This document shows positions 15,347 through 28,998 of a DNA stretch of 28,998 nucleotides, in pieces. Under the pieces are notes generated by a model. The model searched no databases. It was not told the DNA's origin and worked only from the letters and a program-made list of their open reading frames with translations. Source of the stretch: Promethearchaeia archaeon (GTDB lineage Archaea; Asgardarchaeota; Lokiarchaeia; Sigyniarchaeales; SOKP01); NCBI GenBank assembly GCA_029856105.1, contig JAHQWH010000135.1, positions 1-28,998 of the forward strand. Reading direction: 5' to 3'. Position 1 is the first letter of the stretch. Each line of letters begins with the position of its first letter. A program made the position numbers and the translations under genes.

Positions 15347-16780
15347 TTAATGACTATAGGGATGCTTTTTAATTACTTTTACACTCATTTTAATGTATTT
15401 CTCAATGTCTTTTAAGTCCTTACGTTGTTGTTGTTCACAAAATACATAAGCTGTACCTCCCGCACCTGCTCTTGCAGTCCGTCCAATGCGATGCAAGTAA
15501 GTATCTGGCACATCGGGCATGTCAAACTGGATGACGTGTGAGATGTCATCCACGTCAATGCCGCGCGAAGCAACATCAGTAGCTACTAATACTCGAGTCT
15601 TTCCGTTACGAAATGATTTAAGCGCAGCTTGTCGGGCAGTTTGTGATTTATTTCCATGTATGGGTAGGGCATTTATCTTCTTCCTTTGCAAGAACTTGAC
15701 AATTCTATTTGCACCGTGTTTGGTACGCGAAAAAACTAATGCTCGAGTGACGTTTTTATCTTTTAGTATATGTTCCAACAGTGCTTGTTTCTTCTGTTTC
15801 GATATAATGAAGGCAGCCTGCTTAATGATATCCAATGTAGGATTCTCGGGGGATATATTAATTCTGACGGGATTTTTCATAATATTTTTTGAGAGTTTTA
15901 TTATTTCATTAGGTATTGTTGCAGAAAAGAGCAAGGTTTGACGGTTCTCTTTAGGGATCAACGCGACAATTTTGCGAATATCGTGTATGAAACCCATGTC
16001 CATCATCCTGTCACCTTCGTCTAGAATCAAAACCTCAACATAACCGAGGTTTATATGGCCTTGCCTGATCAAATCAAGTAATCTACCAGGAGTTGCAACC
16101 AAAATGTCTACTCCCTGTTGTAACTTTTTCACTTGTGGGTTTTGTCCAACCCCTCCATAAACAACAGTATTTCTTAGTCCAGTATATTTTCCATAAATAT
16201 TAAAACTGTCTTTAATTTGGATTGCAAGCTCTCTTGTAGGAGCAACTACTAAAACACTGATTTTACGCTTGGTTTTCATGCTATTGTCGTTCTTTATACT
16301 AACTAATCGTTGCAAGACAGGAAGAGCGTAAGCAGCAGTTTTTCCAGTCCCTGTCTGAGCACAACCTAGCATATCTTTTCCATTCAATATAATAGGGATT
16401 GCTTGAGCTTGAATTGGTGTCGGAGCCTCATATCCCGAATCTCTTACTGCCTGTAAAATCTTAGAGTCTAAATCAAGATCAGCAAATTTTAAACCACTAT
16501 CAATTTGGTTGTATTGTAATGGTTTATTTTTTTTTGATATCCTAGATTGCACAACTTCTTCTAACCGTGTTACTTCAATAGCAGCAAGACCTTTTTTTTG
16601 TGGTTGAATTGTGAAAGTAAGACAATCACCACTGATGATACTATTATCTTCGTTTGGTTGCAGTGCAGTATGGTGTAAAAAAATATCCTTACCATCCCTA
16701 TCAAGGGTTATAAATCCAAACCCTTTCTTCTCATCATACCATTTGACCGTTCCGGTCATTCTTTGTGTTTCTTTTAACAT
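15347..16780 (-). CDS. DEAD-box RNA helicase (RhlE-like) with fused N-terminal cold-shock domain
   Basis: CSD: GTVKWYDEKKGFGFI...DIFLHHT. Helicase: Q-motif PTPIQ, AQTGTGKT, PTRELA, TPGRL, DEGD, SAT, HRIGRTARAG. Confidence 0.95.
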   Translation of the reverse strand: MLKETQRMTGTVKWYDEKKGFGFITLDRDGKDIFLHHTALQPNEDNSIISGDCLTFTIQPQKKGLAAIEVTRLEEVVQSRISKKNKPLQYNQIDSGLKFADLDLDSKILQAVRDSGYEAPTPIQAQAIPIILNGKDMLGCAQTGTGKTAAYALPVLQRLVSIKNDNSMKTKRKISVLVVAPTRELAIQIKDSFNIYGKYTGLRNTVVYGGVGQNPQVKKLQQGVDILVATPGRLLDLIRQGHINLGYVEVLILDEGDRMMDMGFIHDIRKIVALIPKENRQTLLFSATIPNEIIKLSKNIMKNPVRINISPENPTLDIIKQAAFIISKQKKQALLEHILKDKNVTRALVFSRTKHGANRIVKFLQRKKINALPIHGNKSQTARQAALKSFRNGKTRVLVATDVASRGIDVDDISHVIQFDMPDVPDTYLHRIGRTARAGAGGTAYVFCEQQQRKDLKDIEKYIKMSVKVIKKHPYSH

Positions 16781-23230: not shown

Positions 23231-23274
23231 ATCGCCAAAAAACTTGTAATATTAATGTTAATTTGGAAATTATC

Positions 23275-23847
23275 ATGATTAGAGCATTTATAGCGATCGA
23301 ATTAAAAGACAAAAAAACGATAGAGAAAATTCAGGCTTTCTCATCTCGATTAAAACAAAATCAGCCCAAACTTAAAGTAGTAGAATCAGAAAACCTTCAT
23401 ATGACCGTAAAATTTTTGGGAAACATCACTGAATCCGTGGCACCAAAAATTTATGAAATTTTGAAAGAAGATGTAAACGAAAGCATGTTTCAAGGAAAAA
23501 CTATTGAATATAGTATTAGAGGAGTAGGTCAATTTAACAAATTCGCTGTTTTATGGGTGAAACTTATTGGAGATGTTCAATTTTTACAGCAAATTAAAAA
23601 TACAATAGAACAACTCTTATCTGAGCGATTGAAAATTCAAAAAGATAAAAGAACGGAATTCAAACCGCATCTTACGATAGGAAGATTGAGAAGGGATAAA
23701 GTAAATTATAAAACTTTTGATGTGCTAAAAAAACTAATTAACGAGAATAAAAATCTCGAATTTGGCCCTTTTAATGTAAGCCATGTAAAGCTAAAAAAGT
23801 CTGTTTTAACGCCTACAGGGCCGATATATTCCGATTTGGTATATTAA
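23275..23847 (+). CDS. thpR: RNA 2',3'-cyclic phosphodiesterase (2H phosphoesterase, ThpR/LigT)
   Basis: MIRAFIAIEL N-terminus, two HxT motifs (NLHMTVKFLG, PHLTIGR), KSVLTPTGPIY C-terminus. Confidence 0.92.
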   Translation: MIRAFIAIELKDKKTIEKIQAFSSRLKQNQPKLKVVESENLHMTVKFLGNITESVAPKIYEILKEDVNESMFQGKTIEYSIRGVGQFNKFAVLWVKLIGDVQFLQQIKNTIEQLLSERLKIQKDKRTEFKPHLTIGRLRRDKVNYKTFDVLKKLINENKNLEFGPFNVSHVKLKKSVLTPTGPIYSDLVY

Positions 23848-26481: not shown

Positions 26482-27387
26482 TTACTTTTTATAATTTAAT
26501 ATAAGAACTTCTTTTATCTCTCCACGTTTGGAAGCTTTACTATTAATAACACGTTTAGCTCTTACTACATTTATAATATAATCTTCGTATAATACCATGA
26601 TACTTTTATGACAAGAATTGCTTAGCATTACTTTACTTCCACGACTTGTCAATGTATCAATCACTTCTTTTAATTCAATTTGATTTTCTTCAGTAAAGTT
26701 TTCTTGTGTATAACTCGTGAAATTGGCTGTTTTTGATAAAGGAATATAGGGAGGATCAATATAAAAAAAAGTATTTTCATTGGCATAATCAACACATTTT
26801 TTAAAGGAATCATGTATGATTTCTACATTTTGTAAAACTTCATGAACAGCTCTCAAATTTTTTTCATGACAAAAATTAGGATTTTTGTATTTTCCAAACG
26901 GTACATTAAATTGACCCTTACTGTTTACTCTATATAATCCATTATAACAACACCTATTTAAGTAAATTGTTCTTGATGCTTTTTCAACATCAGACCATTC
27001 TTTAAATTCTTTAGTCCTATCTACATTTCTGATTGTATAATAATATTCTTCTTCATTCTTATGTAGTTTAAGTAATTCTATTAATTCATCTACACTCTCC
27101 TTAATTACTCGATATGCATTTATTAATACAGGATTATTATCTATTAAAACTGCATTTTCAGGTAGAAGATAAAAAAATAACGCTCCACCCCCCAAAAATG
27201 GTTCAACATAAGCTTCAATATCTTTAGGAAGAAAAGAATCGATTTGACTAAGTAATTGACGTTTTCCACCAGCCCATTTTAGAAAAGGAGAAGGAACATC
27301 AACAATTTTTTTGTTTTTCCTATTAATTTCTCTTTTTAATTTCCATTTAGTTTTTTTATCGTAATATTTTAATATTGAATAGTTCAT
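26482..27387 (-). CDS. dam: Dam/DpnM-family N6-adenine DNA methyltransferase
   Basis: PFLKWAGGKRQL, YVEPFLGGG, YLNRCCYNGLYRVNSKGQFNVPFG, DPPY. Confidence 0.93.
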   Translation of the reverse strand: MNYSILKYYDKKTKWKLKREINRKNKKIVDVPSPFLKWAGGKRQLLSQIDSFLPKDIEAYVEPFLGGGALFFYLLPENAVLIDNNPVLINAYRVIKESVDELIELLKLHKNEEEYYYTIRNVDRTKEFKEWSDVEKASRTIYLNRCCYNGLYRVNSKGQFNVPFGKYKNPNFCHEKNLRAVHEVLQNVEIIHDSFKKCVDYANENTFFYIDPPYIPLSKTANFTSYTQENFTEENQIELKEVIDTLTSRGSKVMLSNSCHKSIMVLYEDYIINVVRAKRVINSKASKRGEIKEVLILNYKK

Positions 27388-27623: not shown

Positions 27624-28541
27624 TTGAAGATGAATGAAATCAATTCCATAGATAATAATATTGATGATTCTGAAGAATCAGTAAGACGAGCTTTTGATTT
27701 TTTATTAAACCACTCAAGAATACCCGAAGCATTCTCAAAAGAAGAATTTAAAAGGTTTGCTAACTATCAAAATCCAAAGAATTTTAATACTTATTTTTCA
27801 AAAAAGTTTAGACATTTATTAGAAAAAGCACCAAATGAAAAAAATAAATATTTAGTAGCTGGTGTATTCAGGAAATACTCTAGATGGCATAAATTTAGAA
27901 GATATTACTCACAAAGTTCTAAGATTAAGGTGAATTATATCGAAGAATACTATGAAAAACTAATGATTTTTGATTTTTTTATACCTTTAACTAATGAAAA
28001 TGATTTGAGATCATCATTAGATGAACTTTTTTACAGTGATACTGTGAAACTTATGTTAAATAAAATTCTTAAAAATGAACTTAATATAGTATTTCCGATA
28101 AAAAAAAAGGAATCTAAAGAACAATATATCGAGAGAATATGTGAGTGGATCTCTAAGAGATTTGGGGGATATTCAATTGGAACTGCTAGAGGTAGATTTA
28201 AAATAGATGATCTAAAGACTTTTGCTGAAGTAGCACTGCAAAAAACAAAAGGTTTTGATTATTTAATTGATGAAACAACTGCGATTGTACATTTTATTTT
28301 TCATGTTGGGCCCCCTATTAAAAATCAGGTTTTATTTAATATTGAGCAATTTCAAGAAGATTTAGATGAACATAATGATCAAAAAGAGATTGAATTAGAA
28401 GCTAATCAAATAAGATTTATTTTTAAGAATTTATTTGTTAGAAATATACTTGATTTAGTCAATGGTGAAGATGAGATTTGGATGCTTGAAAGTGGTATTA
28501 GAAATTGTTTATATATTTGGAAAAATGAAAACTTTCGATAA
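27624..28541 (+). CDS. Hypothetical protein (AT-rich orphan, divergent from dam)
   Basis: 305-aa uninterrupted ORF with no motif confidently recognised. Confidence 0.75.
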   Translation: MKMNEINSIDNNIDDSEESVRRAFDFLLNHSRIPEAFSKEEFKRFANYQNPKNFNTYFSKKFRHLLEKAPNEKNKYLVAGVFRKYSRWHKFRRYYSQSSKIKVNYIEEYYEKLMIFDFFIPLTNENDLRSSLDELFYSDTVKLMLNKILKNELNIVFPIKKKESKEQYIERICEWISKRFGGYSIGTARGRFKIDDLKTFAEVALQKTKGFDYLIDETTAIVHFIFHVGPPIKNQVLFNIEQFQEDLDEHNDQKEIELEANQIRFIFKNLFVRNILDLVNGEDEIWMLESGIRNCLYIWKNENFR

Positions 28542-28721
28542 AATATACTTTTCGATAATCTCATATTAAGTGAAAATTAAATTATTGTATAGAAGATCTT
28601 AAAATAGTTGACAAAATAAAGAAAAAAAAAGATAAAAATTAGTATTAATCGATCTTTTGAGCTCATTTATCTATTAAAACCTCCCCATTAAAACTAATCA
28701 GAAAGTAAATATTTTACTCAG

Positions 28722-28739
28722 AAAAAAAAGAAAAAAAAA
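28722..28739 (-). terminator. Oligo-U archaeal terminator downstream of the histone gene
   Basis: Minus strand T9-C-T8 run about 25 nt after the TAG at 28764-28766. Confidence 0.55.
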
Positions 28740-28763
28740 TAAAGATTTTAATAATTCAGTTCT

Positions 28764-28998
28764 CTACCTTGTAGCCTTACGAATATCCGCAGCAGTTACA
28801 CGTTTGCACAAATTCCCGAATTGGAAAATATTTTGCGCTTGTCCGCTTTGGTTATTTTAATAGCCTCTTTAGTTGCGTCTGCGGCTGTTTTTTCGAGAAA
28901 ACCGATAAGTTTATCTAGAGCATCGGCAGCCACTAAATCAGCGCCTTCTTTTTTCATCAATCGCCGAATTGGTGCTTTAGCAATATAACTATCAGATT
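28764..28998 (-). CDS. Archaeal histone (HMf-like fold), split by a 29-nt intron-like insertion; exon 1 >28998..28833, exon 2 28803..28764; 5' end outside the window
   Basis: Hand translation: SDSYIAKAPIRRLMKKEGADLVAADALDKLIGFLEKTAADATKEAIKITKADKRK then, after removing 29 nt, RVTAADIRKATR*. This matches archaeal histone alpha1-L1-alpha2-L2-alpha3 (APIRR...AKRK..TAADI). Confidence 0.92.
28804..28832 (-). other. Putative 29-nt bulge-helix-bulge/loop (EndA-type) intron in histone mRNA
   Basis: RNA ...AAGCGC-AA|AAUAUUUUCCAAUUCGGGAAUUUGUGC-AA|ACGU.... A central 4-bp helix GCGC/GUGC is followed on each strand by AAA; there is an intron stem AUUUUC/GGGAAU; cutting after the 2nd bulge nucleotide on both strands restores the frame. 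Confidence 0.75.

Follow-up and report, generated by a model that had tools for sequence, protein, structure and literature searches.

A predicted BHB mini-intron in a tailed Asgard (Loki-type) histone gene and similar inserts in histone genes of related genomes

Introduction

A BHB motif consists of two bulges of 3 nt, placed on opposite strands with a 4-bp helix between them; each bulge is cut after its second base. A different form of unconventional splicing is that of XBP1/HAC1, in which the mRNA is cut by IRE1 and ligated by RtcB; both isoforms act, and regulation has been shown. Two archaeal mRNAs are among the closest described relatives of the locus analysed here. The cbf5 pre-mRNA of Crenarchaeota carries a BHB intron (Watanabe 2002, as given in PMC7714728; Yokobori 2009, PMC2738675), and a BHB intron is also present in the 5' UTR of the HVO_1309 mRNA of Haloferax volcanii (PMC7714728, PMC10485636). 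In the accessible parts of these sources, cbf5 and the HVO_1309 leader are the archaeal mRNAs named as being cut by the splicing endonuclease, and one paper expects more (PMC7714728, PMC10485636). XBP1/HAC1 splicing is named in the accessible part of PMC13149111. Literature searches, supplements aside, turned up no description of a BHB intron in the coding sequence of a histone or of any other Asgard protein. A preprint on Asgard tRNA introns makes, in its accessible text, no mention of mRNA, cbf5 or histone (bioRxiv 10.64898/2026.10.13.758758), and a preprint of 2026 about the histones of Asgard archaea contains neither the stem splic- nor any of the words intron, frameshift, pseudogene and interrupted. 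Here, a histone gene of a Lokiarchaeia-type Asgard archaeon was analysed together with its counterparts in related genomes.

Results

The host gene and its surroundings

The window, that is, the whole stretch of DNA that was analysed (28,998 nt), is the entire contig C136 of a genome of 3.66 Mb in 238 contigs (G000). The gene at the window end, read on the minus strand, is by its sequence a tailed archaeal nucleosomal histone of a Loki-type Asgard archaeon. It extends past the window end, and its first 25 bases with the ATG, which is preceded by GGAGG, lie on contig C57; C57 and the window end overlap by 127 identical bases. The parts of the gene are as follows.

28833..28998, minus strand: exon 1 (the part inside the window), residues 10-62 and two bases of Lys63; the ATG and the first 9 codons are on contig C57
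28804..28832, minus strand: putative 29-nt BHB mini-intron, between the second and third base of a Lys codon (AA and A), in loop L2
28764..28803, minus strand: exon 2, which opens with the last base of Lys63 and continues as RVTAADIRKATR (helix alpha3), with the TAG stop at 28764-28766
28721..28742, minus strand: oligo-T tract 3' of the stop, by its position and make-up a probable archaeal terminator; all displayed orthologues likewise have T-runs after their stop

Exon 2 (28803-28764) is read in a frame that is shifted by two bases relative to the frame of exon 1. Against PF00808, exon 1 alone matched positions 5-53 of 65 with 30 bits (cut-off 21.4), and an intron-less orthologue identical to the spliced product matched positions 5-64 of 65 with 41.2 bits. 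Two further histone paralogues are present in G000, both uninterrupted.

A TrmB-like gene and, after it, a gene for a Rab-like small GTPase are located on contig C57, approximately 560-2100 nt past the end of the window, and are divergent from the tailed histone gene. Immediately downstream of the latter, at 26482-27387 (minus strand) and 27624-28541 (plus strand) of the window, a D12-class N6-adenine DNA methyltransferase (PF02086, 228 bits) adjoins an ORF of 305 aa. The ORF had no Pfam match, a homologue at the histone 3' flank was seen at none of 13 relatives' loci, and in G002, G004, G015 and G048 its place is occupied by an Alba gene; methyltransferase and ORF may have been inserted there as a mobile element or a restriction-modification unit. 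At 23263-23847 (plus strand), a LigT / 2'-5' RNA ligase-like phosphoesterase (PF02834, PF13563, PF10469) lies beside a HAD hydrolase. Such phosphoesterases are enzymes of the RNA-end-healing type, and this one is on the same contig as the intron-bearing histone. A 477-aa ORF at 15347-16780 (minus strand) encodes a DEAD-box helicase with an N-terminal cold-shock domain (PF00313 + PF00270 + PF00271).

Boundaries and fold of the 29-nt insert

In the initial annotation of the window, the insert was described as 29 nt long and placed in phase 2 of a Lys codon in loop L2, and both length and position were borne out on the minus strand at 28804-28832. The boundary can be slid from -4 to +1 without change of the product (six equivalent placements), and a BHB fits only one of the six, which is the phase-2 position. 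The BHB geometry was used as it is commonly known and was cross-checked against tRNA 37/38 logic. With this geometry, the elements of the insert and its flanks are as follows.

28835..28838, minus strand: H5, the 5' strand of the central 4-bp BHB helix, GCGC, in exon sequence (Arg codon and neighbour)
28832..28834, minus strand: 5' bulge B1, AAA, with the predicted cut after 28833
28810..28831, minus strand: helix h' inside the intron, closed by the loop AAUUC; 7 of 9 scored positions pair in the BHB register
28806..28809, minus strand: H3, the 3' strand of the central helix, GUGC, which pairs with GCGC
28803..28805, minus strand: 3' bulge B2, AAA, with the predicted cut after 28804
28806..28812, minus strand: UUUGUGC, which pairs with GCGCAAA (28838-28832) in a competing non-BHB fold, the minimum-free-energy fold
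28796..28798, minus strand: TAA stop of the unspliced frame, at the end of the tail IFSNSGICANV

All four positions of the central helix GCGC/GUGC pair, one of them as G-U, and helix h' contains one U-U mismatch, at position 2. In the outer exon-exon helix, no pairs form at the four positions nearest the bulges, and an ACA/UGU pairing is reached only with an offset; this gap between helix and bulges makes the motif a relaxed one on its outer side. Relaxed motifs are reported to be accepted by EndA of broad specificity (PMC5829648). When the insert was shuffled in the same exon context, a boundary-matched canonical BHB arose in 155 of 200000 sequences for G000 and in 353 of 200000 for the insert of the related genome G002, with criteria that were chosen after the data had been seen. 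Two other registers were rejected: an intron variant of 35 nt had the wrong BHB topology and L2 would lose two residues, and an alternative of 23 nt would add two residues and had no 3' bulge. The unspliced frame was also read correctly in the annotation, which had the histone end in IFSNSGICANV and a stop: it continues from ...KADKRK into this tail, ends at the TAA (28796-28798) and is open for 73 codons.

Sequence evidence for predicted splicing

Removal of the insert in silico gave a product of 76 aa, which is identical at 76 of 76 positions to the insert-free orthologue of G005, a sister species, and also 100% identical to that of G042. Between exon 2 of G000 and that of intron-less G042, six codons differ synonymously and none by replacement, and the same comparison of G002 with intron-less G048 gave eight synonymous differences and one conservative change. 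Judged by these codons, exon 2 is under purifying selection; the change in it is synonymous only and therefore unlike that of a dead gene. At the level of orthologues, no second copy of the tailed histone was listed in any genome with an interrupted tailed gene.

Two genes with an EndA domain (PF01974, 98.5 and 72.3 bits) are present in G000, on contigs C107 and C12, and encode proteins of 200 and 201 aa. RtcB (PF01139, 558.8 bits) is encoded in an open frame of 545 aa, and a convergent gene for Archease (143.1 bits) adjoins it (contig C191 86017-87795). Asgard EndA is reported as an (alpha-beta)2 enzyme, with a loop that gives broad specificity (PMC5829648). With ARAGORN, an intron was found in 16 of the 23 tRNA genes of G000. 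Among the sequencing runs that share sequence with the region, none was listed as RNA. Alignment of four runs placed two short contigs, neither of which reached the intron or contained a spliced joint; the one with an RNA label, 170 nt long and from a metatranscriptomic run, stops at 28854. A genome-wide scan of G000 for ORF-fusing BHB motifs was given up as too noisy (735032 motifs, of which 48447 were ORF-fusing and 7726 were left after codon-score filters).

In the proposed mechanism, the pre-mRNA would fold into the 4-bp GCGC/GUGC helix with AAA bulges on opposite strands, closed by the intron hairpin. The two-subunit EndA would then cut after the second base of each bulge, and RtcB with Archease would ligate the exons, both as expected from known enzymes, so that the mature mRNA would be translated into the 76-aa histone; if splicing did not take place, only a 73-aa protein without helix alpha3 would be made. 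If the intron is real, the full-length histone needs EndA and RtcB. The premise of the initial annotation, a BHB intron whose unspliced mRNA would give only an alpha3-less product, thus stood, and we consider it very likely that 28804-28832 is a real BHB intron.

Inserts in histone genes of related genomes

An order-wide search was performed in 154 genomes with the G005 protein as query, and odd matches were then fetched. Interrupted orthologues of the tailed histone were found in at least eight genomes, with ten inserts of 29-32 nt at five sites, three of them at the L2 site; eight genomes is a minimum, as matches starting at query residues 9-12 were only partly inspected. The inserts, with their length and site, are as follows.

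G000 (g1): 29 nt, L2
G002 (g1): 30 nt, L2
G084 (g21): 29 nt, L2
G144 (g22): 30 nt, after Lys16 (between YIAK and AP)
G110 (g22): 32 nt, after Lys16
G112 (g22): 30 nt, after Lys16
G112 (g22), second insert: 30 nt, between RRL and M
G103 (g22): 30 nt, after Lys16; stop-free and in frame
G103 (g22), second insert: 32 nt, between VAAE and AL
G130 (g22): 31 nt, in a Thr codon of alpha2

A canonical BHB lies exactly at the ORF-restoring boundaries in 7 of the 10 inserts, and in the remaining three, three of four central pairs form. The insert of G002 occupies the same phase-2 position as that of G000, contains an in-frame TAG and forms a textbook BHB (GAGA/UCUU, bulges AAU and AAA) with a hairpin of 10 positions and one mismatch. 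At the L2 site, the three introns show covariation between the central helix and the exon codon (GCGC/GUGC, GAGA/UCUU and GCGU/GCGU).

Within the genus of G000, the site was read in 32 other genomes, and in 31 of them it contained no insert, the exception being G002. No insert was present at the site in the 18 metagenome loci that cover it (19 loci were found) or in eight loci from two other families. In the whole set, approximately 133 of the 154 genomes gave an orthologue-level match, and approximately 125 orthologues are intron-less. Thirteen genomes gave matches at the level of paralogues only; ten of these were re-searched (all except G001, G009 and G054), and the orthologue was not found in eight, lay at a contig edge in one and was the interrupted gene of G103 in the last.

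The untailed paralogue of 70 aa (contig C163 in G000) is interrupted in copies from g22 and g23, which are mostly extras beside an intact copy. Canonical BHBs restore the ORF in the paralogues of G093, G118 and G142 (four inserts), and the BHB result for G153 is doubtful. In four of the eight interrupted paralogue copies, with two inserts each, the automatic test found no ORF-restoring BHB pair; one of these four, inspected by hand, has a central helix of 4 bp, but next to it lies an internal loop of 2x2. Interrupted paralogues of g22 are often extra copies, and in G093 (contig C27 37038-38147, L097) an intact and an intron-bearing untailed paralogue lie approximately 700 nt apart. Several mini-introns at different sites (L088-L092, L096, L101-L106) have a stem of 7-10 bp and a similar pentaloop (AAUUC, AACUC, ACCUC), and their stems differ. 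The shared loop was rejected as a family mark in G000, where it was carried by 10 of 1839 five-base-loop hits, none of them ORF-fusing and with no excess.

Across the genomes, the inserts are sporadic and spread over many sites of histone genes, which fits elements that are tolerated, spliced constitutively and possibly mobile. Their hairpin form, uniform size and patchy distribution would also suit a small palindromic, MITE-like DNA element that had hit a dead gene, in which case the BHB likeness would be a by-product of any hairpin insert, and the four paralogue copies in which two inserts gave no ORF-restoring BHB pair in the automatic test could be read in the same way. We regard such an origin as quite unlikely, because the residues of exon 2 are kept while its synonymous sites change, no other defect was found in any interrupted copy, the interrupted gene is the sole tailed copy listed in its genome, and the cut sites fall exactly at ORF-restoring positions in the 7 of 10 inserts given above. 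Target-site duplication is also confined to the 0-5 bases produced by BHB symmetry, and among the best 25 matches to the 29-nt insert in G000, all on contig C136, no second copy was found, the best other match being 13 nt long.

A ribosome can also pass over part of an mRNA, as in the translational bypassing of phage T4 gene 60 and of the yeast mitochondrial byp elements. For the insert of G000, the repeat GCAAA is present at both ends, so that take-off and landing at AAA would give the same protein, and the exon-2 frame is open through the insert, as would suit a -1 frameshift into exon 2. That the ribosome bypasses the insert or reaches exon 2 by frameshifting is nevertheless very unlikely when the other inserts are considered. 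In four of the ten no end base is repeated (slide range 0,0), and a further two have a single shared base, so these six offer no matching take-off and landing codons; by bypassing, G002 would lose two residues, and by frameshifting, the in-frame stops in G002, G144 and G112 would stay unsolved. BHB splicing alone covers all cases.

An assembly artefact or a chimera was considered as well, as the insert is 166 nt from the end of contig C136 and the 3' part of the gene resembles the allele of another clade. This source of the insert is extremely unlikely: random error would not yield a boundary-matched BHB, like inserts are present in seven other genomes, and all of the 45 sampled 31-mers of 28500-28998 were recovered in contigs of four runs from three studies (any of which may be the source).

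Control genes and a control genome pair

In the same 154 genomes, S28e gave 149 matches in 146 genomes, of which 148 were full length with no stop or extra length and one was a partial second copy. Alba was searched in the 135 genomes of the family, and the best 150 of 346 matches were all of normal length and had no stop. As a genome pair, 361 kb of G042, the closest relative at the histone locus (approximately 95% identity there), were compared with G000; 226 kb were aligned and contained 16 indels of 15-70 nt, among which, by inspection, there was no 28-33-nt hairpin indel of the histone type. The histone intron itself was missed by this alignment because the 3' flank diverges. Inserts of this kind are apparently not common everywhere, and histone genes look favoured, on a thin base of two control genes and one genome pair and with related genomes that are non-independent. 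The bias hints at something specific to histones, which a purely neutral reading does not explain.

History of the intron at the L2 site

A locus tree was built from exon 1, the spacer and the TrmB-like gene (33 rows). In this tree, G000 groups with the intron-less genomes G042, G017, G005 and G050, and G002 groups with the intron-less G048, G008 and G004, so that two changes are needed. A comparison of window 28760-28860 with L007-L053 showed that the final ~60 nt of the histone gene in G000, together with the 3' flank, resemble the alleles of G002, G048 and G008 and not those of its own clade, and that exon 1 with the upstream region matches G042 and G005. Recombination among species seems to have taken place inside the small histone gene. 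Because the 3' part looks recombinant, the history of the intron (one old intron with many losses versus several gains) is blurred. In a MAFFT alignment of the three L2 introns, G084 and G002 share a core with 13 of 19 aligned columns, and the likeness of G000 to either of them is weak. The 3' part of the histone gene was also observed to be near-identical in G017 and G048, which belong to different clades.

The competing fold and a possible switch

A non-BHB fold of 7 bp that would compete with the BHB had been proposed in the initial annotation. It exists and is the minimum-free-energy fold: the helix GCGCAAA/UUUGUGC (28838-28832 with 28812-28806) gave -22.6 kcal/mol and the BHB-constrained fold -18.3 kcal/mol, so that the non-BHB form is favoured by 4.3 kcal/mol and the predicted BHB share is 0.0014 at 37°C. 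For G002, the BHB itself is the minimum-free-energy fold, with a share of 0.48; the predicted share for G084 is 0.011, and the range over the ten inserts is 4e-6 to 0.48. Four plausible tRNA introns of G000 gave BHB shares of 0.81, 0.0093, 0.0047 and 0.0012, a weak baseline, as ARAGORN boundaries are unreliable in multi-intron genes and 4 of the 13 introns examined looked canonical. Since low shares are common among inserts and tRNA introns, the value for G000 is not unusual, and a low computed share would thus be usual for substrates that are captured by an enzyme.

The same annotation interpreted the intron as regulatory. One part of that interpretation, the BHB intron itself, is supported as a real feature; the other part, in which the frameshift and the two folds form an evolved switch, gained no support. 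The introns at the L2 site are 29, 30 and 29 nt long and those elsewhere 30, 30, 32, 30, 30, 32 and 31 nt, so the frameshift is not a conserved device, and neither is the competing fold, which is absent from the G002 intron. The tails of the unspliced products differ (IFSNSGICANV, NPLTASV, TILASI). With varied lengths, and with one insert that is in frame and stop-less, the frameshift looks incidental to a structure of ~30 nt. Most likely, judging from these comparisons, frameshift and competing 7-bp helix would be by-products of a structured insert of ~30 nt and not a dedicated switch.

In its full form, the regulatory interpretation says that the folds compete, that splicing efficiency, and thereby the amount of full-length histone, would depend on EndA/RtcB activity, on temperature or on stress, and that the unspliced mRNA may give an isoform without alpha3. 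It draws on the existence of both folds, with the non-BHB fold lower in energy, on an unspliced product that is open for 73 codons, on the natural class of alpha3-truncated histones in other archaea (bioRxiv 10.64898/2026.07.02.735847) and on the enrichment of inserts in histone genes over S28e and Alba. We consider it unlikely, because the frameshift and the competing fold are not kept in the other introns of the L2 site, the unspliced tails are not conserved, most orthologues are intron-less, and G000 has two intact histone paralogues. A role as an isoform is not general, because inserts after Lys16 would leave a peptide of just 16 residues. We know of nothing that would mark EndA as a regulated enzyme. 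An IRE1-type KEN domain (PF06479) was not found in G000, and the control genomes also gave no match.

Discussion

The results can be covered by one explanation, which we consider probable: the insert would be a real BHB mini-intron, its frameshift and competing helix would be incidental, and it would belong to a set of 29-32-nt BHB introns that have colonised histone genes. A bolder reading is that histone genes are preferred hosts of mini-introns because the splicing is used, either by tying histone dosage to EndA/RtcB capacity or, at the L2 site, by yielding a nucleosomal and an alpha3-less isoform. We would give this bolder reading a small chance of being correct, and it is kept alive by the histone bias and by the likeness of the unspliced product to the alpha3-truncated class.

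If a histone gene depends on splicing by proteins in the lineage nearest to eukaryotes, this would bear on how introns could initially have become established in coding genes. Gene finders call interrupted genes truncated or split, so surveys of Asgard histones would miscount them. Inserts of ~30 nt that recur at many sites of two histone genes, and not in S28e or Alba, would provide a concrete system for intron gain, site choice and possible regulation, and it is their repeated arrival in histone genes that merits further study.

Compared with XBP1/HAC1, the predicted splicing is likewise protein-only with ligation by RtcB, the introns are of similar length (26 nt in the one, 29 nt in the other), and removal shifts the frame and swaps the C-terminus. 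XBP1/HAC1 differs in that a stress-activated kinase/RNase recognises twin stem-loops, where a BHB would be recognised here, and the frameshift is not kept among the homologous histone introns. The alpha3-truncated, non-nucleosomal histones (bioRxiv 10.64898/2026.07.02.735847; PMC11390915) resemble the unspliced product, which would be a histone fold without alpha3. According to the accessible parts of these two sources, they are separate genes with conserved ends of their own, unlike the truncated tail here, which is not conserved. With the Asgard tRNA introns, as presented in the accessible text of bioRxiv 10.64898/2026.10.13.758758, the histone introns would share machinery and motif as well as repeated independent gains, and both kinds occur in the same genome; the hosts there are tRNA genes, whereas the host here is a histone gene. 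In the HVO_1309 leader, an mRNA is cut by EndA and removal of the intron matters for expression; the histone mRNA is likewise predicted to be an EndA substrate that needs its intron removed. The Haloferax intron differs in lying in a UTR, where no reading frame is at stake, and EndA there is a homodimer.

The case is alike to cbf5, which has a short BHB intron in coding sequence in archaea with (alpha-beta)2 EndA, a relaxed motif, and a patchy presence with gain and loss among related species. The present case differs from cbf5 in its host gene, a histone, in its lineage, which is Asgard (Lokiarchaeia-type), and in the hits at several sites of one 228-nt gene and in a paralogue, and its splicing is a prediction. 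The histone intron would extend BHB introns like that of cbf5 to a further host gene and a further lineage.
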